64,000 bases of DNA from an uncultured Gammaproteobacteria bacterium (GTDB lineage: Bacteria > Patescibacteriota > Patescibacteriia > Magasanikbacterales > GWA2-37-8), in the NCBI GenBank assembly GCA_964619625.1, contig CAZUFD010000003.1:30282-94281 (forward strand), read 5' to 3'. The notes beneath the pieces were generated by a model. It did no database searches and was not told the DNA's origin. It saw only the letters and a list, made by a program, of their open reading frames with translations. This document shows positions 9,733 to 48,866 of this stretch, one piece after another (position 1 is the stretch's first letter; every line of letters begins with the position of its first letter). Both the position numbers and the translations under genes were made by a program.

Positions 9733-9743
9733 GAGGAGTTCTT

Positions 9744-10261: not shown

Positions 10262-10438
10262 ATGTCAAAGCTAATTAGACGAAAAAGAGGAGATACAAAA
10301 ATAGGCACCATTGAAAAGATATATGGAAGGGATTTTGGTACGCGTTCAGATGCTAAGTTAGGAAATTTCTTAGAAAAAAATGGCTATGATTCATTAAGCG
10401 AGCTTTTAAGAAAAGATGACAAAAAAAGATCTAGATAA
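10262..10438 (+). CDS. hypothetical small basic protein (58 aa)
   Basis: Internal ATG of ORF 10196-10438; MSKLIRRKRGDTKIGTIEKIYGRDF; AT-rich. Confidence 0.35.
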   Translation: MSKLIRRKRGDTKIGTIEKIYGRDFGTRSDAKLGNFLEKNGYDSLSELLRKDDKKRSR

Positions 10439-11042
10439 TTTAATAAATGACGTACCAGCCCTCGAACATCTCGCTGGGCGTTTTTTATTTATAAAGGATG
10501 AAGAATTAAGACAGAATATTACCATTGCATTCCAATATATTATATTTTTAATTGCTGTTGAGGGTCAAATTACGTGGCCAGGACCAATTATATATTCTAT
10601 TTTTAAGGATATTATGGTTTACACCGGAAGCATTGTTGAGTCTTGTTTGAGGTATTGCATTAAAGAATATTTTAAGGCAGGTAAGATAGATCCTAAGGAT
10701 GTGATGATTGCAGAATGGAAAATAAATAAACACTTTCAAATTTATAAAATAGACGATAACACAGAGGTGTGTTCTTTGGTGAGGCATAAAAAATTTGAAG
10801 ATTTTGGTGATGAAACACGCTTTAAAGATATAAATAAAATTGCACAAAAAGTTGGAATTTTAACAAAAGAATTATTTGAAAAAGCTGACAGGATTAGAAT
10901 TGATAGGAATAAAGTGCATGTAGTTGCTACTGGAGAAACCCATGATTATTTTACAAAAGAAAATACACAAGCGACTTTTAAATCTGCAAAAGAGATAATA
11001 CAAAGAGTAGAGGAAAAATTATTAGAACTTAATAATAAATAA
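10416..11042 (+). CDS. hypothetical protein (208 aa)
   Basis: Long AT-rich ORF, no recognisable motifs; weak hairpin plus T5 at about 11090-11115. Confidence 0.55.
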   Translation: MTKKDLDNLINDVPALEHLAGRFLFIKDEELRQNITIAFQYIIFLIAVEGQITWPGPIIYSIFKDIMVYTGSIVESCLRYCIKEYFKAGKIDPKDVMIAEWKINKHFQIYKIDDNTEVCSLVRHKKFEDFGDETRFKDINKIAQKVGILTKELFEKADRIRIDRNKVHVVATGETHDYFTKENTQATFKSAKEIIQRVEEKLLELNNK

Positions 11043-11695
11043 AAATTTTTAGTATCTAAAGTAGGGAAGTAGTAACGCTTTGACCGCTGTGGCACCCACC
11101 AGGTGCTTTTTAGTTTATTTAATTTGGCTAACCTAAGCCAAACCTACCCTTTTTGGCTAAGATTAGCCTAATTTATGAGGGTAGGGAAGTTCATTACAAT
11201 TCACTTAGTGCACAGCCCCGTTGCTTGTCTATCACTATGACCTATGTTTCGTCTTATCGACTACTTTATAACTCATATGTGGTTGAGGTGTCGGAGGAAG
11301 AGGTTTGCCTTTGACAGCAGTGACCTCAATTCCTGTTCTACCACCGCGGACTCCAATCAACTCAAGTTGAGCTGAGACAGGAGCCTTTTGGCCGGGTTTG
11401 AGAGCTTTCATATAACTATTATGAAATGCGTGAAACAGGCCGACTAATCCTGCAGCTGCTTAATGCAGCAAGTGGTCAACTGCGAACAGCTGAGGAAAGG
11501 TCAAGTCGGGGCCGTGTATTAAATGAACTGTAGAAGTAATTATACCATTAAATGCCTAAAAGGTTTTATAAGACTGAACGGAGGCAGATTAAAGGATCGT
11601 TAAATACCGTATATATACGTCTCTTAATCTATGTTATACGACATTAAGCACAGAGGGCCCAGGGAGATAAAACCAGCCAAATAAGGCTCTCCCCC
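11040..11695. other. 650-nt ORF-free, highly structured region (candidate ncRNA or att/arm region)
   Basis: No ORF of 60 aa or more on either strand; nested inverted repeats (TTGGCTAACCTAAGCCAA; CCTACCC...GGGTAGG; GGCTAAGATTAGCC; GGGAGA...TCTCCC); repeated GTAGGGAAGT; lies between convergent gene ends. Confidence 0.4.
11634..11642. repeat. candidate att core TTATACGAC (right copy), preceded by CGTCTCTTAAT
   Basis: Matches 7691-7710 motifs. Confidence 0.3.
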
Positions 11696-12715
11696 CTATT
11701 TCCAATATACCTTTTCGCCAAAACGAAGATCTATATATTCCTTTGGTTTTATGGTTGGTAGAATCTGCTTAAAGGTATCTATTTGCGCGTCCAGATTATT
11801 TTTTGGTTGGAAAATAATACTCCAGGATTCTTTGGTATCAATTACCATTCCGGCATTTACATCGTCTAAAACGAAGAATTTAGGCGCTGTCCTCCCCTGC
11901 TCGGCCAACTCTCGCTGCCAGGTAATGGCCGAGGTAATAAATTCAGTTGGTAAGATACCGGATTTCTTTAATTCAATTTCAAGATTTCGTCTGTCATATA
12001 TTAAGGGATATCTGCCAAATAGTTTTCGGATTTTTTCATAATTTGGCGCATGTTTAACCGAGGATGTTGTAATAATTGGTGTGGAAGTGGTGCTGGAAGT
12101 AAACGAAATGCTTAAACTAGTGGTTACAGTTTCCTTTAAAAATTCCCCGGCCTCAACATCCGTTAAATATTTGATTGCGGTTCCTTCGCTATCCAATAAG
12201 AAATATTTCTTACCATTATCATAAATAATAGAGGAAATTTTTTCCTTAACTTCTATATTTAATTCATTAGGAAATACCTTTGTAACCCGAACGCTTTCCA
12301 ATGATAATATATTATATAAATCCTTTGAAATGCTGCCTTCATCAACAAAGAAGTAGTTATTTAAAGGAAGTCTGCTTTTCTTGTTTAAATAATTTTGAAA
12401 TACGACTTGATCCAATTCTGCTCTGGTATTATTTTCCAGTCCAAAATAATTAACTTTATTAATTCTAAAGTATGGTAAATATGCCAAGCAGGCCGCCCAG
12501 GATATAAGTAAAATAAGAAGTATAATCAACTTTAGCTTGGGACTTCTCTGTTTCTGTCTTCGCTCCGCTTTAAATGGATTTGATTTATAATGTAATGACT
12601 GGTTTGGAGCGGCAACAGAGTATTGTTTTTTTCTAAAAAGGCGTAAAATTTTTTTACGCCAGCTTACGTGGGGTTTATATTTTTCAAAAGCGTGTTCAGA
12701 ACGGAAATGCTTCAT
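11696..12715 (-). CDS. cell division protein FtsQ/DivIB-like (POTRA-containing membrane protein)
   Basis: Basic cytoplasmic N-terminus, single TM (LILLILLISWAACLAYL), periplasmic domain; follows mre/PBP2 region on the same strand. Confidence 0.5.
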   Translation of the reverse strand: MKHFRSEHAFEKYKPHVSWRKKILRLFRKKQYSVAAPNQSLHYKSNPFKAERRQKQRSPKLKLIILLILLISWAACLAYLPYFRINKVNYFGLENNTRAELDQVVFQNYLNKKSRLPLNNYFFVDEGSISKDLYNILSLESVRVTKVFPNELNIEVKEKISSIIYDNGKKYFLLDSEGTAIKYLTDVEAGEFLKETVTTSLSISFTSSTTSTPIITTSSVKHAPNYEKIRKLFGRYPLIYDRRNLEIELKKSGILPTEFITSAITWQRELAEQGRTAPKFFVLDDVNAGMVIDTKESWSIIFQPKNNLDAQIDTFKQILPTIKPKEYIDLRFGEKVYWK

Positions 12716-12726
12716 GTGTGGATAAG

Positions 12727-13962
12727 TTAAAGTTTTTTGAATCCGGTATATTTACGCAAAGCCCTTGGTATGAGCACGCTACCATCCCTTTGTTGATGAT
12801 TTTCTATAAGCGCCAGAGGGAATCTGCTGGACACAATGGCCGTGCCATTTAGGGTATGCACAAATTCATTTGAACCATCTTCTTTTTTGTATTTTATATT
12901 TAATCTGCGCGCCTGGTAGTCGGTACAGTTACTAGTACTAGTAATTTCTCCGTAATCATTTTTCATGGTCATCCAGGCTTCAATATCGTACTTTCTGTAT
13001 GCCGGTCCGCCCAAATCACCGCTGGCAACATCTATCACTCTGTACGGCAAATCTAAGCCGTCAGCTATCTTTTGCTCTAGTTTTAAAAGCTCCTGGTGCA
13101 TTTTCTCGCTATCTTCCGGTTTGCAATAAATAAACATCTCTAATTTGGTGAATTGGTGTACACGGTATAAGCCTTTACTGGTTTTACCGTAAGCGCCGGC
13201 TTCGGTACGGAAACAATGAGAAATAGCCGCGTATTTTTTTGGTCCTTTGCTTAAATCAAGCACCTCGTCGGCATGGTAGCCTCCCATGGTAATTTCGGCG
13301 GTGCCGATAAGGCTAAGGTCGGTATTTTCTACGGAATATACCTGGGTTTCGGTGCCCCGTGGATTGAAACCAACACCCGAAAGTATTTCGTTTTTAGCTA
13401 AATCAGGGGTTTCTACGAGAGTAAAGCCATTTTTTTCTAATACATCCATCCCATAGTTAAGCATTGCCTGGTTTAAGCGCACCAGATTATTTTTTGCAAA
13501 ATAAAATTTGGAAGCAGCTACTTTAGCGCCTCTTTCAAAGTCTATTAAGTCTAAGCTGAGCATTAACTCATCATGGTCTTTTGGCTGGAAAGAAAATTTG
13601 GGAGGATTTCCTTCTTTGGCCACTATCCTGTAATCATCCTCCCCGCCTATCGGACTTTCCGGATGAGTAAGATTTGGAACTCGTAGTAAAAGTTCTTTGT
13701 ATTTATTTTCTGCCTCTTCGGCATTTTTTTCTAAAATTGCAATATCATCCCCCATCTTGCGCAGTCTGATAATATCATCTTCGCTTGGTTTGCCTTTTGA
13801 TTGGCTTTTTCTTTGGGACCGCAGTTCCTCTACCCCCTTTTGCGTTTCCCGCCTCTCCTCGTCTAATTTAAGCAAGGCATCTACATCTATAGACACATGA
13901 CGATTTTTACAGTTCTCTTTTATTAATTCTTTGTTTTCACGGATGAATTTTATGTCTAGCAT
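12727..13962 (-). CDS. serS: serine--tRNA ligase
   Basis: N-terminal coiled-coil arm (MLDIKFIRENKELIKEN) plus class II core motifs. Confidence 0.95.
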   Translation of the reverse strand: MLDIKFIRENKELIKENCKNRHVSIDVDALLKLDEERRETQKGVEELRSQRKSQSKGKPSEDDIIRLRKMGDDIAILEKNAEEAENKYKELLLRVPNLTHPESPIGGEDDYRIVAKEGNPPKFSFQPKDHDELMLSLDLIDFERGAKVAASKFYFAKNNLVRLNQAMLNYGMDVLEKNGFTLVETPDLAKNEILSGVGFNPRGTETQVYSVENTDLSLIGTAEITMGGYHADEVLDLSKGPKKYAAISHCFRTEAGAYGKTSKGLYRVHQFTKLEMFIYCKPEDSEKMHQELLKLEQKIADGLDLPYRVIDVASGDLGGPAYRKYDIEAWMTMKNDYGEITSTSNCTDYQARRLNIKYKKEDGSNEFVHTLNGTAIVSSRFPLALIENHQQRDGSVLIPRALRKYTGFKKL

Positions 13963-13972
13963 ACAAGTACTT

Positions 13973-15004
13973 TTACTTTAATTTGATATATTTTAATAGA
14001 ACTTTTTTGTTGCTTTTTGATTGAATAAGTTTTTTATTCAATGGCAACATGTCTGCTTTTAAAGCTTCTGTATAAGTAAACCACCCATAATCTGAACTTT
14101 CTGAAGGCGCAAGTTTTAGCTTGCCGGATTTTATCGTACAAACACACATAAAAAGATGGACCTGATAGGCATCCTCTTTGACCAAGGTAGTAACAATATC
14201 GGGCATCTGCTGTTGTATCTGTACTTTAAAACCGGTTTCTTCCAATACTTCATTGTGCAGTGTTTGGATAAATGTTTCTCCGCCCTCTACGCCTCCGCCG
14301 GGAAATTCCCATTTATCATTAAATTCCGGACGAAAATCTCGGCGTTTAGTCATAAGCATTTTACCATCTTTCACAATAATTCCGGCGGCGCAGATAAGCT
14401 GATACGGCTGATAATTTTTCATTAAAAAATATTTTAACTGAATGGTCATCTTTCCTCTCTGACTTACGGTATTTTTTTCAAGCACCGGCATTTCCGCAAA
14501 TAATTTTTTCATTGGCGGGTAATAAAAGATAGAGGCATAGCCCATATTTTCTTGCACATGCGGAAGCATTTTTTTAGCTATAACCCCATCGGTTCTGCCT
14601 TTAAAAATAGTGAAACTATTAGTCGTTGGATTATATAAACAACCGGAAGTTTCAAAATAAGCCGCGCGCTTTTTATCTGGAACCCCCTCTAATTTTTTTA
14701 ACACCGCATTGTTTCGTTCTATGGCCGTAGCCCCTAATCGTTTTGCCTTTACTCCCGGTTCTCCGTTTAAATAATCAATAAATAATCCGGTATCTTCGGC
14801 AACGGTAAGTAAACCTGTTTTTTTAGCAAAAAACCGTGCTTTTTCCAAAGCATTTTCCCAGGTAGTAGCGTGGGGTTCATCCACCTCTATTCCATTCAGT
14901 TTAAGATCTGTAAGATTGACAAACTTAAAATGCAGGTCCGCAAGCTCAGCCGTTATTTCTTCAAACTTAGCTTTGTTCGTTGTGGCAATAAGGATTTTTT
15001 TCAT
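13973..15004 (-). CDS. fusion protein: non-canonical purine NTP pyrophosphatase (RdgB/Ham1) + Nudix hydrolase
   Basis: N-terminal Ham1 motifs (KILIATTNKAKFEE, TGLLTVAEDTGLFID); C-terminal Nudix box GGGVEGGETFIQTLHNEVLEETG. Confidence 0.8.
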   Translation of the reverse strand: MKKILIATTNKAKFEEITAELADLHFKFVNLTDLKLNGIEVDEPHATTWENALEKARFFAKKTGLLTVAEDTGLFIDYLNGEPGVKAKRLGATAIERNNAVLKKLEGVPDKKRAAYFETSGCLYNPTTNSFTIFKGRTDGVIAKKMLPHVQENMGYASIFYYPPMKKLFAEMPVLEKNTVSQRGKMTIQLKYFLMKNYQPYQLICAAGIIVKDGKMLMTKRRDFRPEFNDKWEFPGGGVEGGETFIQTLHNEVLEETGFKVQIQQQMPDIVTTLVKEDAYQVHLFMCVCTIKSGKLKLAPSESSDYGWFTYTEALKADMLPLNKKLIQSKSNKKVLLKYIKLK

Positions 15005-15408
15005 ACTTCCAGTAAGGCTGCGCGTAGTTTAGAACTCTTATATATTTCCGGTTTAAATGCTTCCAGACGCACGATTTGTACGTGTTTTTTTACAATATCT
15101 TGCAGCTTGTCGGTAAAAAATTTTTGATCGTATCCGAGTACGATAATATCAGGATCTTCATCAATAATCACCTGATATTTATCTCCGGTATTTCCTAACC
15201 GTATTTTATCGGCAATGTGCAATTTTTCCAGGTTCTTTAAACGCTGTTGTTCATTAAATAGCGGTTGTTGGCCTTTTACGTGCTGCACAGTAGCGTCTCT
15301 GGCCACAATTACCGTAAGATGATCGCCTTGTTTTTTTGCTTCAGTAAGAATATAGGTGTGACCCGGGTGCAGTATATCAAATGTACCGAATGCCAAAACT
15401 TTGCGCAT
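15001..15408 (-). CDS. cytidylyltransferase-fold FAD synthase (RibL-like FMN adenylyltransferase)
   Basis: FGTFDILHPGH nucleotidyltransferase motif; overall similarity to archaeal RibL; overlaps upstream gene by 4 nt. Confidence 0.6.
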   Translation of the reverse strand: MRKVLAFGTFDILHPGHTYILTEAKKQGDHLTVIVARDATVQHVKGQQPLFNEQQRLKNLEKLHIADKIRLGNTGDKYQVIIDEDPDIIVLGYDQKFFTDKLQDIVKKHVQIVRLEAFKPEIYKSSKLRAALLEV

Positions 15409-15411
15409 ACA

Positions 15412-16872
15412 TTATTTTTCCGGTTTTAAAGTTGGAAACAGGATTACCTCTTTTAGGTTTTGTACGTCCATGAGAAGTTTTATAAGCCTGTCTATACCCA
15501 TGCCAAGACCAGCCGTAGGCGGCATGCCGTGCTTAAGGGCCGTAACAAAATCCTCATCATACGGCATACTCTCCTCATCCCCCGCTTCGTGCAATCTCTC
15601 TTGTTCTTTAAATCTGGATTCTTGATCTATAGGATCATTAAGTTCTGAAAAGCCGTTACAAAGTTCATTTCCACCTACGCAAACCAATTGTAGACGTTCC
15701 ACATATCTAGGATCATCGGCTTTACGTTTAGCCAGTGGTGACAACTCCACCGGATGGTCTATCATGAAAATTGGATTAATAATTTTTGGCCGCGCAAACG
15801 TTTTATATATTTCATCCACCATTTTTCCATAACCTGTATGTGCGTCTACGCCGTCTATATTTAATTTTTTAATCTTTTTATACAAAGACGCTTGATCCGG
15901 AAATTCTTCAATATCTATATCCGCGTACTGCTTAATAAGCTCACGCATAGTTTTGCGCGGATAGGGCGGAGTAAAATCAACTTCCGTATCCTGGACCTTA
16001 AATTTAAGAGGCAAGCCGGCAGTAGTAATTACCTTTGGTAATAATTCTTCAACTAAATCCATTAAATCTTCGTAATTTGCGTAAGCCCAGTAAAACTCAA
16101 CTTGGGTAAATTCCGGATTGTGGTTGTTGTCTATGCCTTCATTTCTAAAACACTTGGCAATTTCATAGACTTTTTCAAACCCGCCAACAATCAAGCGTTT
16201 TAGATATAATTCCGGCGCAATTCGCAGATACAAAGGAATATCCAGCGCGTTGTGATGCGTGCTAAACGGCTTGGCCAGCGCCCCGCCGTATAAAGTCTGT
16301 AACACGGGGGTCTCAACTTCAAAAAATCCTTTACTGTCAAAATAATTTCTGATTTCACGAACAATAACGCTTCTTACCTTGGCAATTTTCATTGACTCTT
16401 CACTGGCAATAAGATCCAAGTATCTCTGGCGATATCTGGTTTCAATATTTTGCAAGCCGTGGAATTTTTCCGGAAGCGGTAAAAGCGTTTTGCTAAGCAG
16501 GGTATATTTTTTTACTAAAACCGTAAGCTCGCCTTTGTGGGTGATAAAAAGATCGCCTTCTATGTGTAAAAAATCTCCTACATCAAAATGCTTGATAAAA
16601 AATTTATAGGTTTCCTTGCCCAGTTCTTTTTCAGAAAAAGCAAGCTGTATGTTGCCGCTCTCATCTTTTATATGAGAAAAAGTAATTTTCCCCATTTCTC
16701 TTTTGGAAATAAGTCGGCCCGCAACTTTTACCGGGGTATTTTCCGGTTTTTGCAAAGCATCTTTTACGGAGATTCGCTCTTCGGTATGGCTGGGATATGG
16801 ATTGACGCCAAGAGCGCGAAGATGCTCCAATCGTTCCAGTCTTACTTTATCCTCCCTGATTTCGTCTGACAT
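15412..16872 (-). CDS. lysS: lysine--tRNA ligase (class II)
   Basis: OB-fold N-terminus; motif 2 LYLRIAPELYLKRLIVGGFEKVYEIAKCFRNEG. Confidence 0.95.
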   Translation of the reverse strand: MSDEIREDKVRLERLEHLRALGVNPYPSHTEERISVKDALQKPENTPVKVAGRLISKREMGKITFSHIKDESGNIQLAFSEKELGKETYKFFIKHFDVGDFLHIEGDLFITHKGELTVLVKKYTLLSKTLLPLPEKFHGLQNIETRYRQRYLDLIASEESMKIAKVRSVIVREIRNYFDSKGFFEVETPVLQTLYGGALAKPFSTHHNALDIPLYLRIAPELYLKRLIVGGFEKVYEIAKCFRNEGIDNNHNPEFTQVEFYWAYANYEDLMDLVEELLPKVITTAGLPLKFKVQDTEVDFTPPYPRKTMRELIKQYADIDIEEFPDQASLYKKIKKLNIDGVDAHTGYGKMVDEIYKTFARPKIINPIFMIDHPVELSPLAKRKADDPRYVERLQLVCVGGNELCNGFSELNDPIDQESRFKEQERLHEAGDEESMPYDEDFVTALKHGMPPTAGLGMGIDRLIKLLMDVQNLKEVILFPTLKPEK

Positions 16873-16879
16873 AACGGCA

Positions 16880-17353
16880 TTACTTAATTTCTAAAATTTC
16901 GTATATTTGTTTCCCGGCTGGGGTTACCACCGATACTTCATCCCCTACCGCACGGCCAATAAATGTCCCGCCAAGCGGAGATTCGTTAGAAATTTTTCCC
17001 TGTAACGGATCTGCCTCTTGCGGGCCAACAATTGTGTATGATTTTGTCCTATCGCCTGTTTTCACGGTAATATTGCTGCCCATTTGCACTTTTCCCCCCT
17101 GGTCTTGGCCAGCAGATTCTACAATCTCGGCATTATCTAAAATATGCTGCACATCCTGCTTTCTGCCCTGTGCCCAAGCCATTTCTTCCTTGGCTTGGTG
17201 GTATTCGGCGTTTTCCGACAAGTCGCCATGTTGTTTAGCTTCATCTATACGTACGGCAATCTCGGGGATCTTCGTATTTTTTAAATATTCAAGTTCGTTT
17301 TGCAAGTCTGCCAAGCCTTTGGGGGTAAGATACTGGGTTTTTTGATTTAACAT
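16880..17353 (-). CDS. greA: transcription elongation factor GreA
   Basis: YLTPKGLADLQNELEYL...HGDLSENAEYHQAKEE. Confidence 0.9.
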   Translation of the reverse strand: MLNQKTQYLTPKGLADLQNELEYLKNTKIPEIAVRIDEAKQHGDLSENAEYHQAKEEMAWAQGRKQDVQHILDNAEIVESAGQDQGGKVQMGSNITVKTGDRTKSYTIVGPQEADPLQGKISNESPLGGTFIGRAVGDEVSVVTPAGKQIYEILEIK

Positions 17354-17505
17354 ATTTTTGCTAATTTTATAGCTTTTATCTTTAATTTAGATAGAAAAAT
17401 TATAAGCAGAGCTTGAAATTGTGTGGAGTTTCAGAGATAAAAATCAATTTTTATCTCACTGACCTCTAGCGATTATAGCACAGAAGCTTGGGTTTGGTAA
17501 AGAAA

Positions 17506-19476
17506 TTAATTTAAGTATTTTTTCCCCCACCAGAGCAAGAAATCACGGGCAATTGGCTGGGAAGCGGTACTCCCTTCTTCACCCTCTTCTACAAGCACAG
17601 TCACTACAATTTGAGGGTCGTTTGCTGGAGCAAATGAAGTGAACCAGGCATGGTTATCTTTATTTGAATTCCACTGCGCCGTACCTGTTTTTCCGCCGCT
17701 TGCAAACGGCAGTACCCGCATAAGTCCGCAACTGCCGTATGCTACACAATCTTTCATCCCCTGGCGAACGATGCTTAAGTTCTCGGTAGAAACGGGTACG
17801 TCGTATTTTTTGAAATCTAAAGAGCTTTTAGTATGGGTTACGGGTTCTTCCAGTTGCAGACCCAAATGAGGTTGTATTACTTTACCGCCGTTTGCCACGG
17901 CCGCAGTCCATACGGCTACTTGGAGCGGCGTTACGAGTAAATCTCCCTGGCCAATGGAGATATTGTAGGTATCACCGACAAACCACTGCTCGCCCTTAGT
18001 TTTAAGTTTCCATTCTTTGCTTGGCAGAAAACCGGCAGCTTCTCCGGTTAAATCTATTTCAGTTTTTTTAGAAATTCCAAACGCAGTCATATACTTGGCA
18101 ATTCTATCAATCCCTAAGCCTACGAAATTTTTATATCCGCCGCCTACGTAGTAAAAAAAAGTATTTACTGACCAAGCTATGCCCTTATATACATTGGTAG
18201 TGCCATGACCGCCGGCTTTCCAATCTCTGAATATTCTATCTCCCAATTGTAATCCGCCCGTGCTTAAAAAGGCCGTGGTAGGAGTGATTATTTTTTCCTG
18301 CAAAGCCGCGGCGGCCACAACCAGCTTTATCGTAGAGCCGGATGGATACGTACCTCCGATAGCCCGATTAAACAGCGGATGATCGGTATTTTGAGTGTAC
18401 TGGCTATATTTTTTTTGAGTTATGCCTCCGGAAAAATCATTATTATCAAAGGCCGGCAGACTGACCATGGCCAAAATTGAACCGTCTCGTGGGTCCATAG
18501 CCATCGCCGCCGCGCGTTTCTTGCCTGTTTTTGCCAGCATGTTTTTTGTGAGCTCTTCCAATTTTTTTTGCGCTTCCAAATCAAGCGTTAAGATTAGATT
18601 TTTTCCCGGATGCGGCGGATCTTCGGCGAGCACGCTTTGTTCCCGGCCAATAGCGTTTACTTCCACCTTTTTAAGCCCGTATTTGCCGCGCAACGCGGAT
18701 TCGTAGCTTTTTTCGAGTCCAACTTTGCCGATATTATCAAATGGCAAGTATTCTTCCGTATCTTTTAGACCCTCTACTTCCTGATCATTTAATTTGCCTA
18801 AGTACCCAAGAAGGTGGGAAATACTTAGGTTGTGTTCCACAGTGCTTGTGGAAGAAATATATTGGCGTTTGCTGCCTTTTTCAATGGAAATACCGGGAAG
18901 TTGCGAGCTTTGGATGTATAACTTTAACGCGGATTCGTAGTCCAAGTTTTCTTTAATAACCAAAGAAGCGTAGCTGTAGGAACTGTATTTCTTTAACATT
19001 TCCGTAATTTGTTCTTCGGGTACGCCGCTTAAACTGACTACTTTCTCAATAACAGTTTTGCGTTTGCCGGCATTTCTAGGCAGATCTTGAGGGATCAAAG
19101 CTAGAGAAAAATTAGGCACATTTTCTACAAGCTCCGTATGGAATCTATCATAGATAATCCCCCGTTCCGAAAGAATTGGCCGCAACCTAATTCTATTCCC
19201 TTCGGCTAGATCGCGATAATAATCGCCTTTTACCGTTTGCAGATAAAACGTTTTGCCAAAAAGCATGCCAAGCCCGGCAACAACGACAAGCATCATAATA
19301 AAAATATTCTTTCGAGGAATGCTCGTGCCTAAGTATGTTTTGGTATGTGATAAGGAAATTTGTTTGCCGGTCTGGCGTTCAAAATTAAAAGACTCCTCAA
19401 CCCAGTTGTGGCTATACTTTCCATCCAAATCTCCACGTTGAATTTTTTCTTCGGAAATATCAAATATTTTTGCCAT
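17506..19476 (-). CDS. mrdA: penicillin-binding protein 2 (peptidoglycan D,D-transpeptidase)
   Basis: N-terminal TM, RGIIYDR dimerisation-domain motif, SGSTIK active site; adjacent to mreBCD. Confidence 0.85.
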   Translation of the reverse strand: MAKIFDISEEKIQRGDLDGKYSHNWVEESFNFERQTGKQISLSHTKTYLGTSIPRKNIFIMMLVVVAGLGMLFGKTFYLQTVKGDYYRDLAEGNRIRLRPILSERGIIYDRFHTELVENVPNFSLALIPQDLPRNAGKRKTVIEKVVSLSGVPEEQITEMLKKYSSYSYASLVIKENLDYESALKLYIQSSQLPGISIEKGSKRQYISSTSTVEHNLSISHLLGYLGKLNDQEVEGLKDTEEYLPFDNIGKVGLEKSYESALRGKYGLKKVEVNAIGREQSVLAEDPPHPGKNLILTLDLEAQKKLEELTKNMLAKTGKKRAAAMAMDPRDGSILAMVSLPAFDNNDFSGGITQKKYSQYTQNTDHPLFNRAIGGTYPSGSTIKLVVAAAALQEKIITPTTAFLSTGGLQLGDRIFRDWKAGGHGTTNVYKGIAWSVNTFFYYVGGGYKNFVGLGIDRIAKYMTAFGISKKTEIDLTGEAAGFLPSKEWKLKTKGEQWFVGDTYNISIGQGDLLVTPLQVAVWTAAVANGGKVIQPHLGLQLEEPVTHTKSSLDFKKYDVPVSTENLSIVRQGMKDCVAYGSCGLMRVLPFASGGKTGTAQWNSNKDNHAWFTSFAPANDPQIVVTVLVEEGEEGSTASQPIARDFLLWWGKKYLN

Positions 19477-20008
19477 ACATGCGCGCGTTTCTGGCCGAGG
19501 AGTGTAAATATTTTAAGAATTTTAAATCAAAAAGATACATCAAAAATAATAGAATTGAGGAAAGCAGCACCTCCCAGCCTGTATCTGCCAAAATTTCTTT
19601 ATATGGTAATCCGGGGAGATTGTAAAAGTAGTTATAGATCGTTAGGAGGAGTACAAATAATATGCGGTATAAGGTAATGCCCAAGATAGCGGACAGCAGT
19701 ATCATATATACCGAACGGTTGGTAAGGATATGAAGCTGAAACCAGTTAATTGTCAAAAGGCTAGCCAGGAGCGCGGAAGTGCCAATGCCGAACGGAATAC
19801 TGCTTAGTAGTTCCGAAAAGTATGATATAACGAGGCCTAGCCAAAAAATTTTCTTACTGGGGGCAACAATGAGTAATAACAACAAGACGACAAAAATAAT
19901 GTTGGTGTGGTTAAAAGGGTATGGCAAAAAATTAACGATAAATATATGCGTTGTCAGAATCAGGGTTACATATATACAAAGCATGATTGCTTTCCATACT
20001 ATCTTCAT
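19460..20008 (-). CDS. mreD: rod shape-determining protein MreD (polytopic membrane protein)
   Basis: Small hydrophobic protein between mreC and PBP2. Confidence 0.5.
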   Translation of the reverse strand: MKIVWKAIMLCIYVTLILTTHIFIVNFLPYPFNHTNIIFVVLLLLLIVAPSKKIFWLGLVISYFSELLSSIPFGIGTSALLASLLTINWFQLHILTNRSVYMILLSAILGITLYRILFVLLLTIYNYFYNLPGLPYKEILADTGWEVLLSSILLFLMYLFDLKFLKYLHSSARNARMYGKNI

Positions 20009-33796: not shown

Positions 33797-33930
33797 GCAT
33801 TTTTACAGGTGGATTGTTGTTGATAAAACTGCAGCTACAGAACCCAGCGGCCACACTCTCTAGATTTATGGCTGTTTTTGTTTATTTTGGCTAATTTTAA
33901 ACTAAAAATAGATAAAATTTTGATAAAGTA

Positions 33931-33959
33931 TTGACAAAACACGAACTTATTGTTACTAT
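33931..33959 (+). promoter_or_regulatory. sigma70 promoter TTGACA-17-TACTAT
   Basis: Perfect -35, 17-nt spacer, 5/6 -10; about 80-nt leader with RBS in hairpin loop (AACGGC GAAAGGA GCCGTT). Confidence 0.55.
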
Positions 33960-34041
33960 TGCTCGTTATGTAGAAGCGGCACGCAGGGGGTGTGCAACTT
34001 CTCATAATAGACCCTAAACGGCGAAAGGAGCCGTTTTCCCG

Positions 34042-34392
34042 ATGACCGACTACCAGAACCCTGATCCCGAACTTTTTGGTCTGGAGATCGCAGTCCATTT
34101 GGGCTGGCTCGCCGGTACCGAAGCCCCTCCACTAGAAGACGAGGGGGCAGAGATCACGATCAGCGAGTTTTCCGACGCTGATCTGTTCAACTTGGAGGTC
34201 GAACACGCAGTCGACACTGCCGTTGTCGTGCCAGAGCCCGCTGGGCTGAAGGCGGCAACTGCGGAACCGACCAGCGTGGATGATGGTTGGGAGATGGAAA
34301 ACACGGGTGACAGCCAGGAGAATACCCAGGTTGATCGCCCGCGTCACATGATCATTACGGCAGAAGGTCCCCGTCTGGTCCACCACGAGTAG
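34042..34392 (+). CDS. GC-rich highly acidic protein (116 aa, hypothetical)
   Basis: AAAGGAG SD; Asp/Glu/Pro-rich; about 60% GC. Confidence 0.6.
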   Translation: MTDYQNPDPELFGLEIAVHLGWLAGTEAPPLEDEGAEITISEFSDADLFNLEVEHAVDTAVVVPEPAGLKAATAEPTSVDDGWEMENTGDSQENTQVDRPRHMIITAEGPRLVHHE

Positions 34393-34417
34393 TTGGGTGT
34401 GCCGGCGCGAAGCATCT

Positions 34418-34481
34418 GTTCGCCGCCGCACTACCGCTTTCAAGATAAAAAAATTTGTCTTGTAAAGCGGTGGCGGCGAAC
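34418..34481. repeat. 64-nt imperfect inverted repeat (GTTCGCCGCC...ACCGCTTT / AAAGCGGT...GGCGGCGAAC) around an A-rich loop
   Basis: 10 + 8 bp stems with 5-nt bulge; directly after stop of 34042 gene; no T-run. Confidence 0.5.
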
Positions 34482-34508
34482 TTCAAAAAAACAGATATAA
34501 CAAAAAAT

Positions 34509-34530
34509 CCGCACGTGAGCGGGTTTTTTG
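34509..34530 (+). terminator. intrinsic terminator CCGCACGTGAGCGG + GTTTTTTG
   Basis: 4-bp GC stem, 6-nt loop, T6. Confidence 0.6.
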
Positions 34531-34583
34531 TTATATTGACCATTTACTTAAAATATGGTACGAATTATTTAGGAGGGATCAAC

Positions 34584-34700
34584 ATGAATCTTGCCGAGGA
34601 ATTGATTGGATCTGCCCTGGAAATCTTCCTGAACTGGATGGCGATCATGTACCGTATCCGGGAACTCTTCCGGGTTGACCTCTTCCCCTTGTCCTCCTAG
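34584..34700 (+). CDS. candidate 38-aa peptide
   Basis: AGGAGGG SD 6 nt before ATG; MNLAEELIGSALEIFLNWMAIMYRIRELFRVDLFPLSS; TTGACC at 34536. Confidence 0.4.
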   Translation: MNLAEELIGSALEIFLNWMAIMYRIRELFRVDLFPLSS

Positions 34701-34792
34701 TTAGTACCTTGTATCGGGCTTCACGCCCAGTACGTCGTCCTAGAGAGGGCAGCAACCAGCGGTGTCACACACTGTTGTGACGCCGCAACACA

Positions 34793-34825
34793 AAAACAGC
34801 TTTCAACGTAAGGCTGTTTTTGTTT
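34793..34825 (+). terminator. intrinsic terminator (AAACAGC...GCTGTTT + TTGTTTT)
   Basis: 7-bp stem plus T-run. Confidence 0.6.
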
Positions 34826-34882
34826 TCAACAATTGACCCATTTTATATAAGTATGCTAGTTTACATACAAGGAGGTAGTGGT

Positions 34883-35143
34883 ATGAAGAAGGATGCAAAT
34901 TTCTTTGAGAACTTGGTGGATTGGATCAAGGAGTCGCTGCGTACGTTGCAGCTAGACGAGGTGTTGGAAGATCTTGCTTACTGGGTGGGAAAGTTCGTTA
35001 TTGAGGTGAGCAAAGAGCTTACTCCTGAAGGTTTGCAGAAGTTCTTCAGCGGTTTGAGCGGCGGGTATATCAATACGATGGACCTAGACATCGATCTGGA
35101 TGGAGTGCAACCCGATGAACTTCTCTGCAAGAAAAGCAGGTAG
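34883..35143 (+). CDS. GC-moderate small protein (86 aa, hypothetical)
   Basis: AAGGAGG SD; TATAAG -10 at 34845-34850. Confidence 0.55.
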   Translation: MKKDANFFENLVDWIKESLRTLQLDEVLEDLAYWVGKFVIEVSKELTPEGLQKFFSGLSGGYINTMDLDIDLDGVQPDELLCKKSR

Positions 35144-35164
35144 CGCCTCTACTGCGCAAGGTCT

Positions 35165-35205
35165 TCGCCTCGCCCGAAAATTCGGAGCGAGGCAATGTAT
35201 TTTTA
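35165..35205 (+). terminator. intrinsic terminator hairpin (GCCTCGCCCGAA..TTCGGAGCGAGGC) + T-rich tail
   Basis: Long GC stem after stop of 34883 gene. Confidence 0.5.
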
Positions 35206-35251
35206 TAGGAAAAATGGATTACGTTTAATTTTTAAATATTGCTAGCACCCC

Positions 35252-35280
35252 TTGACAAAAGGGGTGTTTTGGTGTATAAT
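35252..35280 (+). promoter_or_regulatory. perfect consensus sigma70 promoter TTGACA-17-TATAAT
   Basis: Exact consensus hexamers with 17-nt spacer; -35 embedded in palindrome CACCCCTTGACAAAAGGGGTG. Confidence 0.7.
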
Positions 35281-35409
35281 GTCGGGTTGCTCTTTTAATA
35301 GACAGTCTTATTTGCCCCGGGGCAAGAATGCGTCAAATTAGCGCTTTCTCGCCCCTCGGCAACCAAGATTTCGCCGAGACAACCATTTTCCGTGAGAGGA
35401 TCGAAACAA

Positions 35410-35820
35410 ATGAAGAACTTCCGCACCCAGTTCACCTCCATCGCCAGCAACCTGATCATCCTGATCATCGCGCTCGCCTTCGTCCTCACGGGCGGGACGA
35501 CCACGGTCAACTCGGCCTACGCCGACGGCTCCGCGATCACCGTCCGCAAGAACGGCAAGAGTTTCCCGCTCACGCAGAAGCACCGCAACGCGATCAGCGA
35601 GATCGAGCACATCATGCGCCGGTCGGGCGACAACCAGAAGCAGCCGACGAAGTTCTTGTACTCCTGCAACCAGGGGAACGAGAAGATCCGGCAGATCGTC
35701 GCCACCTTCCCCGCGGATGAGCAGTTCATCATGTCGGACGAGTGGGACGGCGAGTGCTTCTTCTACATCCCGCCGACCCGGAAGGTCAACAAGACGCCGG
35801 TGATGGTCGCCAAGAAGTAG
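35410..35820 (+). CDS. secreted small protein with signal peptide (136 aa), extreme GC3 codon usage
   Basis: GAGAGGA SD; signal peptide ...LIIALAFVLTGGTTTVNSAYA; about 68% GC with GC3-saturated codons unlike host. Confidence 0.65.
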   Translation: MKNFRTQFTSIASNLIILIIALAFVLTGGTTTVNSAYADGSAITVRKNGKSFPLTQKHRNAISEIEHIMRRSGDNQKQPTKFLYSCNQGNEKIRQIVATFPADEQFIMSDEWDGECFFYIPPTRKVNKTPVMVAKK

Positions 35821-35873
35821 CAACACCCTGGTCGTGTTCGCGCCCCAAGCGCGGCCACGGCCTACGGCCCAAC

Positions 35874-35910
35874 GAACCCCGCACGCAAGTGTCGGGGTTC
35901 AGTATTTTTA
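35874..35910 (+). terminator. intrinsic terminator GAACCCCG...CGGGGTTC + T-run
   Basis: 8-bp GC stem followed by AGTATTTTTA. Confidence 0.65.
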
Positions 35911-42337: not shown

Positions 42338-43468
42338 TTAACTTGCGGTAATGGTAAATAAATCTGCTTTGGCATTTTCAATTAAAGAGCTATCTATATT
42401 TGCTTCCAAACGCAATACATTTTCAAGTTTGGCCTTAATTTGTGGATGTTTGGCTACAAATAAACTGCAGCAATCCTCGTATGGCCGGATAGAAATATCA
42501 AACGTGCCGATAGTTCGAGCGGTCTCTATTATATCTTTTTTATTGGTTCCTATCAATGGAGATAATTGCAATAATTCCGACGATTTGGAAATGACTGACA
42601 TATTCTCTAAGGTCTGCGAAGCTACTTGCCCCAGGCTATTACCGGACACCAGAGCCAAATAGTTATACTCTTGCGCGATCTTTTCGGCAATTTTATTAAA
42701 AATTCTACGAGTAACAATCATGCGGTACTCGGCCGGGATTTTCATAATCACCTCTTTTTGAATAGCCGCAAACGGTACGATAAATAATTTTATTTCCGGC
42801 TGATAGCGAGCCAAAACATGCGCCAAATCAAATATTTTTGCGCTCACTTCTTCGGTTACGCTTGTTTGGTTTTGAAAATGCAGCAGGTGCGCCTGCGCGC
42901 CTCTCGTCATCATTTTATAAGCGGCTACGGGGCTATCCAAACCGCCGGAAAGTAAAACCAAAACCTTGCCGCAGCTGGATGTCGGCAATCCTCCGACTGC
43001 ACTGTGCGTATTGCCAAAAATATAAGCGCTGTCTTTACCAATATTGATATGAATATTTAAATCTGGATTTTTCAAGGAGACCTGCCAGTTATACTTTATT
43101 CGTACATACTCTCCTATTTGTTTTTCTATTTCCGTTGAAGGAATGGGAAATTTTTTAAACGAACGCTCAGCAGAGATGCGAAAGGTTTTAGTACTCGCGT
43201 TATTCTTTACCAGTTTATCAATGGTCTTTTTAATATCCTCCGTGGCATGGCTGGCTTTGAACGCTATGGCAAAATTAGCAAAACCGGGAATTAGAGCCAG
43301 CTGTTTGATTTGCTCAGGCAAAATATTTTCAACCCACAAACCGCTTTCTATTCTTTTTACCTTTATTTTCGGCAATAAATGTTCCAAATTATTTTTAAGA
43401 TGTCCATAAAAAACAGGCTGATTGGAGCCTTTGAGAAAAATTTCATCTATATGGATTATTGCATTCAT
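42338..43468 (-). CDS. thiI: tRNA 4-thiouridine synthase ThiI
   Basis: THUMP region plus PP-loop LLSGGLDSPVAAY. Confidence 0.85.
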   Translation of the reverse strand: MNAIIHIDEIFLKGSNQPVFYGHLKNNLEHLLPKIKVKRIESGLWVENILPEQIKQLALIPGFANFAIAFKASHATEDIKKTIDKLVKNNASTKTFRISAERSFKKFPIPSTEIEKQIGEYVRIKYNWQVSLKNPDLNIHINIGKDSAYIFGNTHSAVGGLPTSSCGKVLVLLSGGLDSPVAAYKMMTRGAQAHLLHFQNQTSVTEEVSAKIFDLAHVLARYQPEIKLFIVPFAAIQKEVIMKIPAEYRMIVTRRIFNKIAEKIAQEYNYLALVSGNSLGQVASQTLENMSVISKSSELLQLSPLIGTNKKDIIETARTIGTFDISIRPYEDCCSLFVAKHPQIKAKLENVLRLEANIDSSLIENAKADLFTITAS

Positions 43469-43589
43469 ACCACACTATGGGGATTTAAGCCTTATTCTAC
43501 AGTCTTTTCTGAAACTGTAAACCCCTCTATAAATTGACTCTTTATTCTACTAATGATAGCGTACTAATACACCCTAGAAGGAGTAAAGG

Positions 43590-43925
43590 ATGACCAGAAA
43601 CCCATCTGTGGGTGTCTTTAGAAGAATGTGGTGGTGCATTCGGTGCCGGAGAGCGTTGCCTAACGGCGGCCCATGCTCCCGCTGCAGAGGGATGCAGTGC
43701 ATTGGGTGCAAGGGGGCGCCTGACGGTCAATGCTCTCGCTGTAGAGGAAACTTCTGCATTTCTTGCTTTGAAGCGCATGCGCAAGTGAACCATGCGCCAA
43801 ACATGGTGATGACAGGGGTCAGTTGTGTGGAATGCGGAAATGAACCGGATGGCCAGTGTGCCCACTGCCCGGCAATCCTGTGCGAAGGCGAGGAATGCCG
43901 AAAAACCCACGAAGGCAGGCATTAG
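43590..43925 (+). CDS. GC-rich Cys-rich protein with three tandem CxxC-x(8-10)-CxxC zinc-ribbon units (111 aa)
   Basis: GAAGGAG SD 6 nt before ATG; repeats CIRCRRALPNGGPCSRCRG / CIGCKGAPDGQCSRCRG / CVECGNEPDGQCAHC; TTGACT at 43534. Confidence 0.6.
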   Translation: MTRNPSVGVFRRMWWCIRCRRALPNGGPCSRCRGMQCIGCKGAPDGQCSRCRGNFCISCFEAHAQVNHAPNMVMTGVSCVECGNEPDGQCAHCPAILCEGEECRKTHEGRH

Positions 43926-43974
43926 TCGTAACAGTGAAGACGGCTATGGAAGTATTTGCCCGATCGGGCAACCA

Positions 43975-44010
43975 GGACATCTGCAAGCCCAGCTCTGTCC
44001 TTGTTTTTTT
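43975..44010 (+). terminator. intrinsic terminator (GGACA...TGTCC + T9), preceded by hairpin TTGCCCGATCGGGCAA at 43956-43971
   Basis: Stem-loops followed by TTGTTTTTTT. Confidence 0.6.
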
Positions 44011-44033
44011 AAAACATAATTAAATTTTTTATT

Positions 44034-47350: not shown

Positions 47351-47923
47351 TTAATTTTCTTCCTCTAAAATTGTTTGTATCTCACTAATCATGCCTTGAG
47401 CTGTTAGACTTTTAGGATCGTCTAAAATGGCTCCTATACCACCGTATATAGTGGAATAAGTTTCAGAGTTTTTCTTATCCTCTTTTTTATTACTTTTTGC
47501 TATTGCGAGACTTCCTTCATAATTAAGTATTGCTGCACGGGCATTAAGTTTCGCTGTTTTGGATAACGCTTTTTCTGATTTTTCTTGCGCTTCGGCAGAT
47601 TTTTTTAATTCTCTCCTAGTCATCTCAAGCTCACTTCTCTGAAGTTTTAGCTCTTCCCTCTGTAATACAATAGCATAAATAACACCCAGAAAAGCTAAGC
47701 CAGAAAAAAGTGCGTTAATACCTCCAAACATATCTCCAAATAACCCTCTATCGGTCATTTTTGAAAAAAACTTACTTACAATCAAAAAATAAACGATAAG
47801 TACCAATAAGGTTGCTATAATTGAAAAAACTATTTTTTTCATAGAATTAATAATACCGCACTGTTTAAGAGATTCTTCCGCTTCGGACAGAATGACACTA
47901 ATATTGTACCTGATTTTGGCCAT
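47351..47923 (-). CDS. hypothetical membrane protein with coiled-coil
   Basis: Two TM helices plus charged helical region. Confidence 0.5.
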   Translation of the reverse strand: MAKIRYNISVILSEAEESLKQCGIINSMKKIVFSIIATLLVLIVYFLIVSKFFSKMTDRGLFGDMFGGINALFSGLAFLGVIYAIVLQREELKLQRSELEMTRRELKKSAEAQEKSEKALSKTAKLNARAAILNYEGSLAIAKSNKKEDKKNSETYSTIYGGIGAILDDPKSLTAQGMISEIQTILEEEN

Positions 47924-47948: not shown

Positions 47949-47977
47949 TTGACAGCAAAAAATCAATAAGGGATAAT
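47949..47977 (+). promoter_or_regulatory. sigma70 promoter TTGACA-17-GATAAT
   Basis: Perfect -35, 17-nt spacer, 5/6 -10, 20 nt upstream of SD AAGGGGG. Confidence 0.6.
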
Positions 47978-47996
47978 ATCCGCCAAGGGGGAAACC

Positions 47997-48308
47997 ATGC
48001 AGAACAAGCTTTCGTTGGCCTTGGAGCAGGCGCTCCAGGGATCATGTCAGGTTCAAATCACTTTCAAACGGGATGCGGCTAACAGTGTCCGCTCTCTGCT
48101 GAGAATGATCAAGACCGGGCACATCTTGATGCCGGACGATGAGGAGAAGGCTCTCAAGAAGACCGCTCAGTCCGGTGGGTGGGGTGAAGATCGTCATCGT
48201 ACGACAAATGTCACGTTCACGAGCATTTTCGTCAAGGCCGATATGAAGGATACGTTTGCCAGAATGATGCGTCTAGCCATCGAACAGATCGAGGTCGTGC
48301 CATCCTAA
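47997..48308 (+). CDS. GC-rich small protein, family Y copy 3 (orphan, 103 aa)
   Basis: Blocks GSCQVQITFKRDAANSVRSLLRM, SGGWGEDRHRTTNVTFTSIF, LAIEQIEVV align with Y1/Y2. Confidence 0.7.
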   Translation: MQNKLSLALEQALQGSCQVQITFKRDAANSVRSLLRMIKTGHILMPDDEEKALKKTAQSGGWGEDRHRTTNVTFTSIFVKADMKDTFARMMRLAIEQIEVVPS

Positions 48309-48330
48309 GCAGCAAGCCTGCCAAAACAAA

Positions 48331-48368
48331 GAGCGCCAGGATAATCATCCCGGCGCTCAAATTATTTT
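48331..48368 (+). terminator. intrinsic terminator (GAGCGCCAGG...CCCGGCGCTC + A/T tail)
   Basis: 9-bp GC-rich stem after Y3 stop. Confidence 0.55.
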
Positions 48369-48404: not shown

Positions 48405-48866
48405 TTAACGAATAGACCCCCAATTATTTAGATATTCTTGTGCACCGGGATTTACTTCTCCGCTTTTATTCAGAGACACTATAAATTTATATAATTTATT
48501 GTTATTTGATCTGGTTTCTTTTAATTTTAAAGTCGGGACAATAAAAAACATGTTATGCTCAAACCACAGACCTATTAAGTAATCGGCTTCGGTTTTTTCT
48601 ACTTCAGTCAACGTAAAATGTGTAACGCTATTGTGGTTACTCGACGAGCTAACCAATCTTTGCCGCGTCTTAACTTCCAGTTTAATTTTTCTACCATTTG
48701 AATGGTTAAACAAAAGTATATCATACCCCTTTTCATCATAGTTTCTATATACAGACCAACCTTTGGCATTAAAATAATAATATAAGTAAAACATCACAGA
48801 AAGTTCTCCGATCTCTTTCAAAGAGTCACTTATATTTTGTGCGGTTTTTTTATTGATAAATTCCAT
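48405..48866 (-). CDS. PD-(D/E)XK-like nuclease-fold protein (hypothetical)
   Basis: GYDILLFNHSNGRKIKLEVKTRQ resembles D...E.K catalytic motif. Confidence 0.5.
   Translation of the reverse strand: MEFINKKTAQNISDSLKEIGELSVMFYLYYYFNAKGWSVYRNYDEKGYDILLFNHSNGRKIKLEVKTRQRLVSSSSNHNSVTHFTLTEVEKTEADYLIGLWFEHNMFFIVPTLKLKETRSNNNKLYKFIVSLNKSGEVNPGAQEYLNNWGSIR

Follow-up and report, generated by a model that had tools for sequence, protein, structure and literature searches.

Several kinds of small, autonomous genes have been described in bacteria and their phages. Phage morons carry their own promoter and hairpin terminator, deviate in composition and lie in variable slots between conserved genes. Integron cassettes are small open reading frames (ORFs) with an imperfect hairpin that form tandem arrays adjoining a tyrosine recombinase and are present or absent at the strain level. 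Type II toxin-antitoxin systems, orphan antitoxins and immunity genes are characterized by a size of about 100 amino acids, divergent paralogs, an own promoter, variable spacers and occasional two-gene operons, whereas Acr-like anti-defence genes are small and fast evolving, belong to no known family, possess a strong promoter and a variable surface, and reside on phages or mobile elements, often with a regulator downstream. Here we analyze Y3, a small gene in a 64,000-nucleotide stretch of Patescibacteria DNA (contig CAZUFD010000003.1, positions 30,282 to 94,281; referred to as the window), which shares features with all of them. Y3 adds a member to a so far unnamed small-protein family of the candidate phyla radiation (CPR), for which no relative in sequence or structure was found. 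According to our best explanation, which as a whole we consider moderately likely, Y3 is a genuine, self-contained promoter-ORF-hairpin gene that is not an active mobile element and that, at this locus, fills a variable spacer between tkt and an ltaS-hpf-murB block. CPR genomes are tiny and code largely for small proteins of unknown nature, and little is understood about the ways in which accessory functions are gained and diversified in them.

A profile of Y3 and its two paralogs in the window, Y1 and Y2, was compared with 1.84 billion representative proteins and matched 156 of them at E <= 1e-3 (48 at E <= 1e-10), adding 153 further representatives that were matched over profile positions 1-100. 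Most members comprise 97-105 amino acids; there are a few tandem Y-Y proteins and a few with N- or C-terminal extensions, and no Pfam domain was found in the non-Y parts of the longer members. The family is sparse, with clusters of 1-3 members, and among the closer members from outside the window P0004 and the Y proteins of loci L008 and L020 (L numbers denote loci compared with the window) are 38-42% identical to Y3. The named sources are Candidatus Magasanikbacteria, Candidatus Falkowbacteria and the Parcubacteria group, and one Y-bearing metagenome-assembled genome (MAG) labelled Gammaproteobacteria, L008, is evidently CPR as judged from its synteny with the window. Judging from these sequences, the family would so far be restricted to Patescibacteria, and it is uncharacterized. 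The L008 contig (CAYIHE010000001.1; 42% GC) is titled "uncultured Gammaproteobacteria bacterium", a label that is probably wrong; its Tkt, MurB and HPF are 83, 64 and 66% identical, respectively, to those of the window, the source genome of which is Candidatus Magasanikbacteria-like.

In an alignment of 60 sequences, W62 and F87 (Y3 numbering) are invariant and A12, T22, L34, R68 and I98 are at least 90% conserved, with the consensus motifs ITFK, W-x2-D-x-N-R-T and ALEKIEVV. Y3 holds all conserved positions (QITFK, GGWGEDRHRT, IEQIEVV); Y1 of the window lacks R68 and has a Cys (ADCTITI) where the family has a near-invariant Arg, which is present in a sister strain (ADRTITI). AlphaFold2 predicts for Y3 a confident model (predicted local distance difference test, pLDDT, 93.9; predicted template modeling score, pTM, 0.83) with the order a-b-a-a-b-a-a-b, and the ratio of nonsynonymous to synonymous substitution rates (dN/dS) is 0.12 for the Y genes of the L002 and L004 pair. 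Because of the conserved core, the confidence of the AlphaFold2 model and this dN/dS, Y is considered a real, folded protein under selection. Its net charge is not conserved (isoelectric points of 4.3-10.4), and this speaks against nucleic-acid binding through a conserved surface. Small proteins of the dimeric alpha+beta barrel (ABM, LsrG-like) and ACT-like ferredoxin folds were considered as candidate likenesses, the ABM criterion being a b-a-b-b-a-b ferredoxin-like topology with significant similarity in structure or sequence. None of the 60 members matched Pfam, and searches of Pfam, NCBIfam, PHROGs and PADLOC gave nothing for Y1-3 nor for the two genes X1 and X2 that lie near Y1 and Y2; also, the other small genes of the window discussed below gave no match in NCBIfam, PHROGs or PADLOC. 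A sequence profile search of the PDB with Y yielded nothing, a Foldseek comparison of the Y model with PDB and BFVD yielded nothing at E < 0.01, and in the full-text literature on CPR, GC content at third codon positions (GC3), small genes and cassettes no description matching the Y units was found.

Searching the window with Y3 by tblastn gave matches only to Y1 and Y2 (E about 3e-6), and running the Y profile over all six-frame ORFs gave exactly three copies. Smith-Waterman z-scores were 13.5 for Y3-Y1, 13.5 for Y3-Y2 and 11.1 for Y1-Y2, and none of 2000 shuffles reached the real score. By blastn, no DNA similarity was detected among the three genes and no second copy of the Y3 unit in the window. 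As their amino-acid identities are only 24-31% and DNA similarity is absent, the three copies represent ancient paralogs.

The signals around Y3 (Table 1) are those expected of an independent gene. A GC >0.5 stretch spans everything from the promoter through the hairpin, and Y3 itself has a GC of 0.52 in a window of 0.407. Its promoter matches the consensus at 11 of 12 positions; sites of at least this quality occur seven times in the window (128 kb of strand), whereas a first-order Markov simulation of this DNA predicts 2.4, and the chance of finding one correctly placed upstream of a given ATG is roughly 0.001-0.004. Transcription would begin at this promoter and end at the hairpin, and the position of the -10 box predicts a leader of only about 12 nt. 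Y3 is monocistronic. Two hypothetical proteins and the nuclease-fold protein are encoded right next to it, and housekeeping genes follow farther out, with transketolase towards one end and the ltaS-hpf-murB block towards the other. The converging neighbour matches Pfam NOV_C (PF13020) with E 1.2e-5 and 25.7 bits, above the gathering cutoff of 22.1, and carries a D...ExK motif (GYDILL...LEVKT). Comparable promoters (TTGAC(A/T/C)-type -35 box, 16-18 nt spacer) and a 3' hairpin accompany most other Y genes examined. An earlier note on this DNA had described the Y3 ORF with several peptides including IEQIEVV, a paralogy to Y1 and Y2, a TTGACA-17-GATAAT promoter with an AAGGGGG Shine-Dalgarno sequence, AT-rich genes on both sides and a PD-(D/E)XK-like neighbour on the other strand. 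All of these peptides and signals were located, the shuffle test that it had named as a possible refutation spoke clearly against chance, the flanks have a GC of 0.32-0.34 as opposed to 0.506 in the unit, and the nuclease-like neighbour could be substantiated. Stem-loops at the 5'-end of an mRNA are known stabilizers. A GTCTGC...GCAGAC stem-loop follows directly after the -10 box in the Y leaders of L008 (5958-5982) and L009 (5944-5956); the leader of Y3 is too short for one of this type.

The same note had proposed a terminator with a GC stem. A stable hairpin is indeed present; however, its canonical T-run (TTTGTTTTGG) lies on the minus strand, and the plus-strand tail reads AAATTATTTT, such that a strict terminator scan called it for the minus strand only. 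Hairpins behind other Y genes also end in GAA-TTTTT on the plus strand and are preceded by A/C-rich sequence on the 5' side and, because these homologous hairpins share the tail, the structure is assigned to Y3, where it is probably a bidirectional terminator. Its pattern, GAGC[CG]CC..GGA[CT]..[AG]TCC..GG[CG]GCTC, was searched as an explicit regular expression, combined with folding of each sequence, in 187 kb of non-redundant DNA, that is, the window plus the loci fetched up to then. Five occurrences were found in four genomes, each 20-35 nt past the stop codon of a Y gene (Y3, L008 Y, L017 Ya, L017 Yb and the tandem Y-Y gene of L025), and none at any other of the small genes in these sequences. 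All five share an outer stem of 6-9 bp beginning with GAGCC, 1-3 unpaired 5' nucleotides and an inner GGAC/GTCC helix of 3-5 bp, and in Y3 two base pairs have changed in a compensatory manner relative to the other four (C-G to G-C, C-G to U-A). Together with GAGCC...GGCTC variants in L009 and L024, the Y-type hairpin is thus found behind 5 of the 17 Y genes examined, plus two variants, which is a small sample. The coding sequences linked to it are only 33-46% identical in amino acids and show no DNA similarity. That the hairpin outlasts synonymous sites suggests an added role as a protein-binding or recombination site, but paired stems may evolve slowly, which could account for part of its conservation. 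All occurrences of this type of motif in IMG/VR are ordinary perfect hairpins, in phages that have a GC of 61-71% and lack Y. In the Magasanikbacteria genome of L017, two adjacent and separately promoted Y paralogs (7559-7858 and 8001-8318; 33% identical; GC3 of 0.57 and 0.90) are both followed by a Y-type hairpin, with genes for a lipase-like protein and a PIF1-type helicase on either side of the pair.

Three diverged genomes, that of the window included, carry Y in one shared spacer, tkt...ltaS-hpf-murB. The order is tkt, two AT-rich genes of unknown function, Y3, nuclease, ltaS, hpf, murB in the window; tkt, Y, five small genes including a HicAB-like pair, ltaS, hpf, murB in L008; and tkt, three genes, Y, one gene, ltaS, hpf, murB in L020. 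The Y proteins that share this slot are 38-45% identical; between L008 and L020, Y is 45% identical and LtaS 83%. In at least 9 of about 14 independent contexts, Y is a solitary gene between housekeeping genes, and solitary is therefore the normal state for the family: Y lies between ferredoxin-like and diacylglycerol kinase (DAGK)-like genes in L009, after a ClpB-like gene in L010, after an apparent AlaRS gene in L013 and between apparent GatC and LigA genes in L014 (the neighbours in these four loci were named from their translations), and the Y genes of L024 and L025 are similarly solitary. A conserved partner, a 67-81-aa "Z" gene, exists only in the L002/L004 subfamily, where it forms Z-Y operons.

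Comparison with a sister strain showed how Y genes change over short times. L033, the Magasanikbacteria MAG contig JACOYB010000009.1, aligns with window positions 1-19601 at 88-95% nucleotide identity outside of gene-sized gaps; no HPF protein of this strain was found in the records, and its contig probably stops shortly before the Y3 site. Y2 (window 9415-9733) is precisely missing in L033 (reverse complement 10451-10453), where an AGGAG (Shine-Dalgarno) microhomology marks the junction of the Y2 promoter and leader with the start of X2, which is kept without Y2. Also missing in L033 are an AT-rich gene (9028-9306) and the body of the Xer gene (6688-7521), the latter loss lying between TGGTAAAG[AG]TT direct repeats and sparing the first ~43 codons of the gene, and window positions 10199-11691 are replaced by DNA with a different tyrosine recombinase (30% identity). 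Clearly, Y genes are gained or lost as whole genes in this strain-variable island. For the genes shared with L033, dN/dS values were 0.72 for Y1 (synonymous divergence, dS, 0.13), 0.32 for X1 (dS 0.18), 0.18 for X2 (dS 0.20) and 0.00-0.14 for ten host genes (dS mostly 0.16-0.2). As the dS of Y1 is similar to that of its neighbours, Y1 was inherited vertically between these strains, and its amino acids changed 5-10 times faster than those of the neighbours.

The composition of Y3 deviates mainly at synonymous sites. Its GC contents at the first, second and third codon positions (GC1/GC2/GC3) are 0.52/0.38/0.66, compared to host averages of 0.48/0.36/0.40; in 1125 host windows, each of 104 codons, GC3 never rises above 0.538 (z = +4.7 for Y3), and the Lys codons AAG:AAA occur at 7:1 in Y3 versus 196:959 in host genes. 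Host genes for which good expression is expected (those for ATP synthase-like subunits, an MreB-like protein and HPF, the identities of the former two being read from translations) have an ordinary GC3 of 0.39-0.46. In most loci compared, Y exceeds its host in GC3, with 0.92 against 0.44 in L008, 0.90 (Yb) against about 0.33 in L017, 0.82 against about 0.52 in L025 and 0.67 against 0.31 in L004; the excess is slight in L003 and absent in L013 and the GC-rich L023.

This excess is not specific to Y. At least nine further GC-rich small genes in the window, with a GC3 of 0.54-0.99, have their own TTGAC(A/C/T) promoter, Shine-Dalgarno sequence and hairpin, and in total at least ten GC3-rich mini-genes lie at four inter-operon junctions in the 64 kb. 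Three of these junctions hold GC-rich small genes in related genomes as well. At the junction upstream of tatD, where the window has a tandem array of four, L017 also contains GC-rich small genes, but only one member of the array, c34883, has a detectable counterpart there (L017 1556-1813), which is 30-34% identical while TatD is 84% identical. A Cys-rich mini-gene of the window lies in a segment (43517-44027) without any match in Rfam; at this junction, L020 carries another GC-rich (0.63) and Cys-rich gene, which differs from it and is located downstream of a gene that aligns with window positions 42338-43468. The persistence of high GC3 in syntenic slots of genomes with saturated synonymous sites argues either for its maintenance, through mRNA-level selection or GC-biased gene conversion, or for repeated import from a GC-richer pool. 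It is conceivable, if doubtful, that these genes constitute an undescribed class of Patescibacteria units that evolve fast, turn over gene by gene at fixed junctions and actively keep their GC3, the Y hairpin acting in cis, either bound by the Y protein itself for autoregulation or as an integrase-free recombination handle for the exchange of cassettes. The data define a recurring architecture of autonomous GC3-rich mini-genes with whole-gene gain and loss at the strain level.

Table 1. Features of the window around Y3, its paralogs and other GC-rich mini-genes (coordinates refer to the window).
Feature	Position	Strand	Remarks
Y3 coding sequence	47997-48308	+	103 aa, predicted cytoplasmic, alpha/beta; family apparently restricted to Patescibacteria
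Sigma-70-type promoter of Y3	47949-47977	+	TTGACA (47949-47954), 17-nt spacer, GATAAT (47972-47977)
Putative Shine-Dalgarno sequence of Y3	47985-47991	+	AAGGGGG, 5 nt ahead of ATG
Two-tier GC hairpin	48331-48358		GAGCGCC-A-GGAT-AATC-ATCC-C-GGCGCTC; dG -19.5 kcal/mol, z = -6.7
GC-rich transcription unit	47950-48368	+	GC 0.506, within DNA of 0.32-0.34 GC
Diverging neighbour of Y3	47351-47923	-	190-aa hypothetical, GC 0.34, membrane-like by hydrophobic stretches
Converging neighbour of Y3	48405-48866	-	NOV_C / PD-(D/E)XK-like nuclease-fold protein, GC 0.32
GC-rich mini-genes X1, Y1, Y2, X2	7.9-10.1 kb		
X1	7940-8317		
Y1	8565-8873	-	102 aa, 24% identical to Y3
Y2	9424-9732	+	102 aa, 31% identical to Y3; opens the Y2-X2 operon
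X2	9744-10097		
Tyrosine recombinase beside Y1/Y2	6686-7651		XerC/D-type
Four tandem GC-rich mini-genes	33926-35900	+	each with own TTGAC(A/C) promoter, Shine-Dalgarno sequence and hairpin
Mini-gene	34042-34392	+	116 aa, acidic
Mini-gene	34584-34700	+	38 aa
Mini-gene c34883	34883-35143	+	86 aa
Mini-gene	35410-35820	+	136 aa, N-terminal hydrophobic segment; GC3 0.99, host-like GC1 0.45 and GC2 0.39
Cys-rich mini-gene	43590-43925 (in 43517-44027)	+	111 aa, GC 0.57, CxxC repeats, own Shine-Dalgarno sequence, hairpin and T-run

Is Y3 itself mobile? The earlier note had suggested a mobile or selfish cassette, and in one form of this idea Y3 is a recent arrival that spreads inside a genome and from one genome to another, for example with its hairpin as the site of recombination or with an unseen recombinase acting in trans, its high GC being the unameliorated signature of a donor. 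What stood of that suggestion is the self-contained, deviant unit, the Y2 indel and the variable Y1/Y2 island with its tyrosine recombinases. The codons of Y3 look foreign (GC3 of 0.66 against 0.39-0.40 and the Lys usage given above), there are three Y copies per 64 kb, Y2 is precisely present or absent between strains that are ~92% identical, and tyrosine-recombinase genes, a different one in each strain, edge the island. In addition, the conserved hairpin could act as a recombination site, such hairpins are ordinary in DNA of 61-71% GC, and a GC-rich lineage with host-like GC3 in Y exists (L023). However, neither terminal inverted repeats nor a target-site duplication, for which the note had asked, were found at Y3, where there are only short AT-rich chance repeats, nor is there any transposase or recombinase gene nearby; the copies have diverged beyond DNA similarity, and Y is found in one and the same spacer of three diverged genomes. 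GC1 and GC2 of Y3 are host-like so that only synonymous sites deviate, Y1 descended vertically between close strains, and a deletion would fit the simple microhomology at the junction of the Y2 indel. No match to Y was obtained by tblastn in 50,697 phage and 72,556 plasmid records, nor in a scan of IMG/VR keyed on two short conserved motifs. We therefore regard a recent arrival as a mobile cassette as unlikely. An insertion sequence or miniature inverted-repeat transposable element was rejected in the absence of terminal inverted repeats, a target-site duplication, a nearby transposase and any near-identical copy in the window. An integron was likewise rejected: the recombinase beside Y1/Y2 scored 227 bits with XerD, 222 bits with XerC and only 100 bits, over a partial match, with the integron integrase, and is of the XerC/D and not the IntI type, Y3 has its own promoter and no integrase is encoded near it. 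The resemblance to integron cassettes extends to the tandem array at 33.9-35.9 kb, but a separate promoter precedes each unit, genes of the 8-10 kb island point in both directions, the 28-nt GC stem of Y3 with its T-run has the design of a terminator, and no attC-like features were identified, no scan with an attC model having been made. In kind, the phage moron comes closest to the Y3 unit. In contrast to morons, Y3 is chromosomal and positionally persistent, lying between housekeeping genes and not in a prophage, the same family recurs in its slot, its GC deviation is mainly synonymous, and Y has no relatives in PHROGs, phage records or BFVD, nor in the motif-limited IMG/VR scan.

Other functions can be imagined for a chromosomal Y3. 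If Y were the antitoxin or immunity half of a toxin-antitoxin or polymorphic-toxin pair, Y3 would be an orphan without its toxin X, an idea fed by the earlier note, which had remarked on a missing "X partner". Small size, divergent multi-copy paralogs with own promoters, variable spacers with an adjoining HicAB pair in L008, the Y2-X2 operon (11-nt gap), the Z-Y operons of L002 and L004, fast evolution and a variable surface would all fit. However, no relationship is detectable between X1 and X2 (z = 0.1 versus shuffles; only an MxW+xV start in common), so the absence of an "X partner" carries no meaning. X2 is an ORFan, with no homologue among 5.8 billion clusters except for a 91%-identical ortholog in the sister strain, no neighbour of any other Y gene resembles X1 or X2, partners occur on either side of Y and are mutually unrelated, and Y genes are mostly solitary. 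Since X2 survives with the same promoter but without Y2 in L033, a toxin (X2)-antitoxin (Y2) relation is unlikely, and no toxin or antitoxin signature was detected in Y, X1 or X2 with PADLOC or Pfam; altogether, we judge the antitoxin reading to be quite improbable. Acr-like genes share the small size, fast evolution and strong promoter of Y3, but theirs is a context of mobile elements, of which there is no sign around the recurrent chromosomal position of Y. It is very improbable that Y is a housekeeping-like CPR protein, for example stress- or ribosome-associated, which is highly expressed and multiplied by ordinary paralogy, with GC-ending codons and the hairpin selected for mRNA stability or translation. 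Such a protein would account for the near-consensus promoter, the strong Shine-Dalgarno sequence, the stable hairpin and the leader stem-loops of L008 and L009, for the largely synonymous GC enrichment over the whole transcribed region, which recurs across lineages in all but L013 and L023, and for the conserved slot beside ltaS-hpf-murB, but not for the ordinary GC3 of presumed well-expressed host genes, nor for the high dN/dS of Y1, the presence or absence of whole genes between strains, the sparse family, and a GC3 excess that is slight in L003 and missing in L013. Finally, the Y3 ORF might be spurious and the GC-rich segment a structured non-coding RNA or an assembly chimera, as GC-rich islands in AT-rich genomes frequently mark structured RNAs and the Y3 mRNA folds marginally better than its shuffles (z = -1.6). 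This reading is effectively refuted by the paralogy, seen in protein and not in DNA, by the 156-member profile, by the high-confidence AlphaFold2 model and by the purifying selection between L002 and L004. Moreover, Rfam had no match anywhere in the window, a contig of 2044 nt in a separate Logan assembly of a sequencing run is identical, and the same architecture recurs across many genomes.

We thus favour the self-contained accessory gene. In that case, Y3 would be transcribed, perhaps constitutively and strongly, from its own sigma-70-type promoter through a short leader with a Shine-Dalgarno sequence into a monocistronic mRNA ending at the two-tier hairpin, which likely terminates transcription in both directions. 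As a fast-evolving gene that is gained or lost whole, with elevated dN/dS and a surface whose charge varies around a constant core, Y might encode a small protein that acts as a binder or adaptor in a process of interaction or conflict, possibly as a dimer, because tandem Y-Y fusions exist, and turnover may proceed gene by gene through short-homology deletion and recombination. Several points weigh against this explanation. The Y2 indel and the recombinase-bearing Y1/Y2 island show that Y genes move by some route, and the dN/dS of 0.72 together with the lost Arg of Y1 could mean decay rather than diversifying selection. Use of the Y3 promoter and terminator is deduced from sequence, nothing ties Y to a specific partner, ligand or process, and the tandem Y-Y protein P0038 was modelled with a pTM of only 0.55, too low to be usable for the dimer geometry. 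Also, the three Y genes in the shared slot are only putative orthologs, as they are just 38-45% identical, the neighbour-joining tree of the family is star-like, and a same-codon test gave no slot-specific signal at their saturated synonymous sites; they may have evolved fast in place or may have been replaced or inserted repeatedly at a hot spot. If GC3 is maintained rather than inherited from donors, these genes would provide a natural case for third-position selection or biased gene conversion in bacteria, and if the Y hairpin is a binding or recombination site, it would point to a new regulatory or cassette-exchange mechanism; if neither holds, Y3 is one more hypothetical accessory gene, now within a defined family.

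Two further observations were made during these comparisons. Between the window and L033, dS amounts to 1.13 for the SerRS gene (12727-13962) and to 0.46 for a CoA ligase gene (1432-3579), as compared to 0.16-0.2 for their neighbours, and both alleles look like imports by homologous recombination. In the unrelated loci L009 (6460-7755) and L024 (3190-4386), Y lies near a pair of DAGK-like and bactofilin-like genes, and this neighbourhood may be a second recurrent position for Y.

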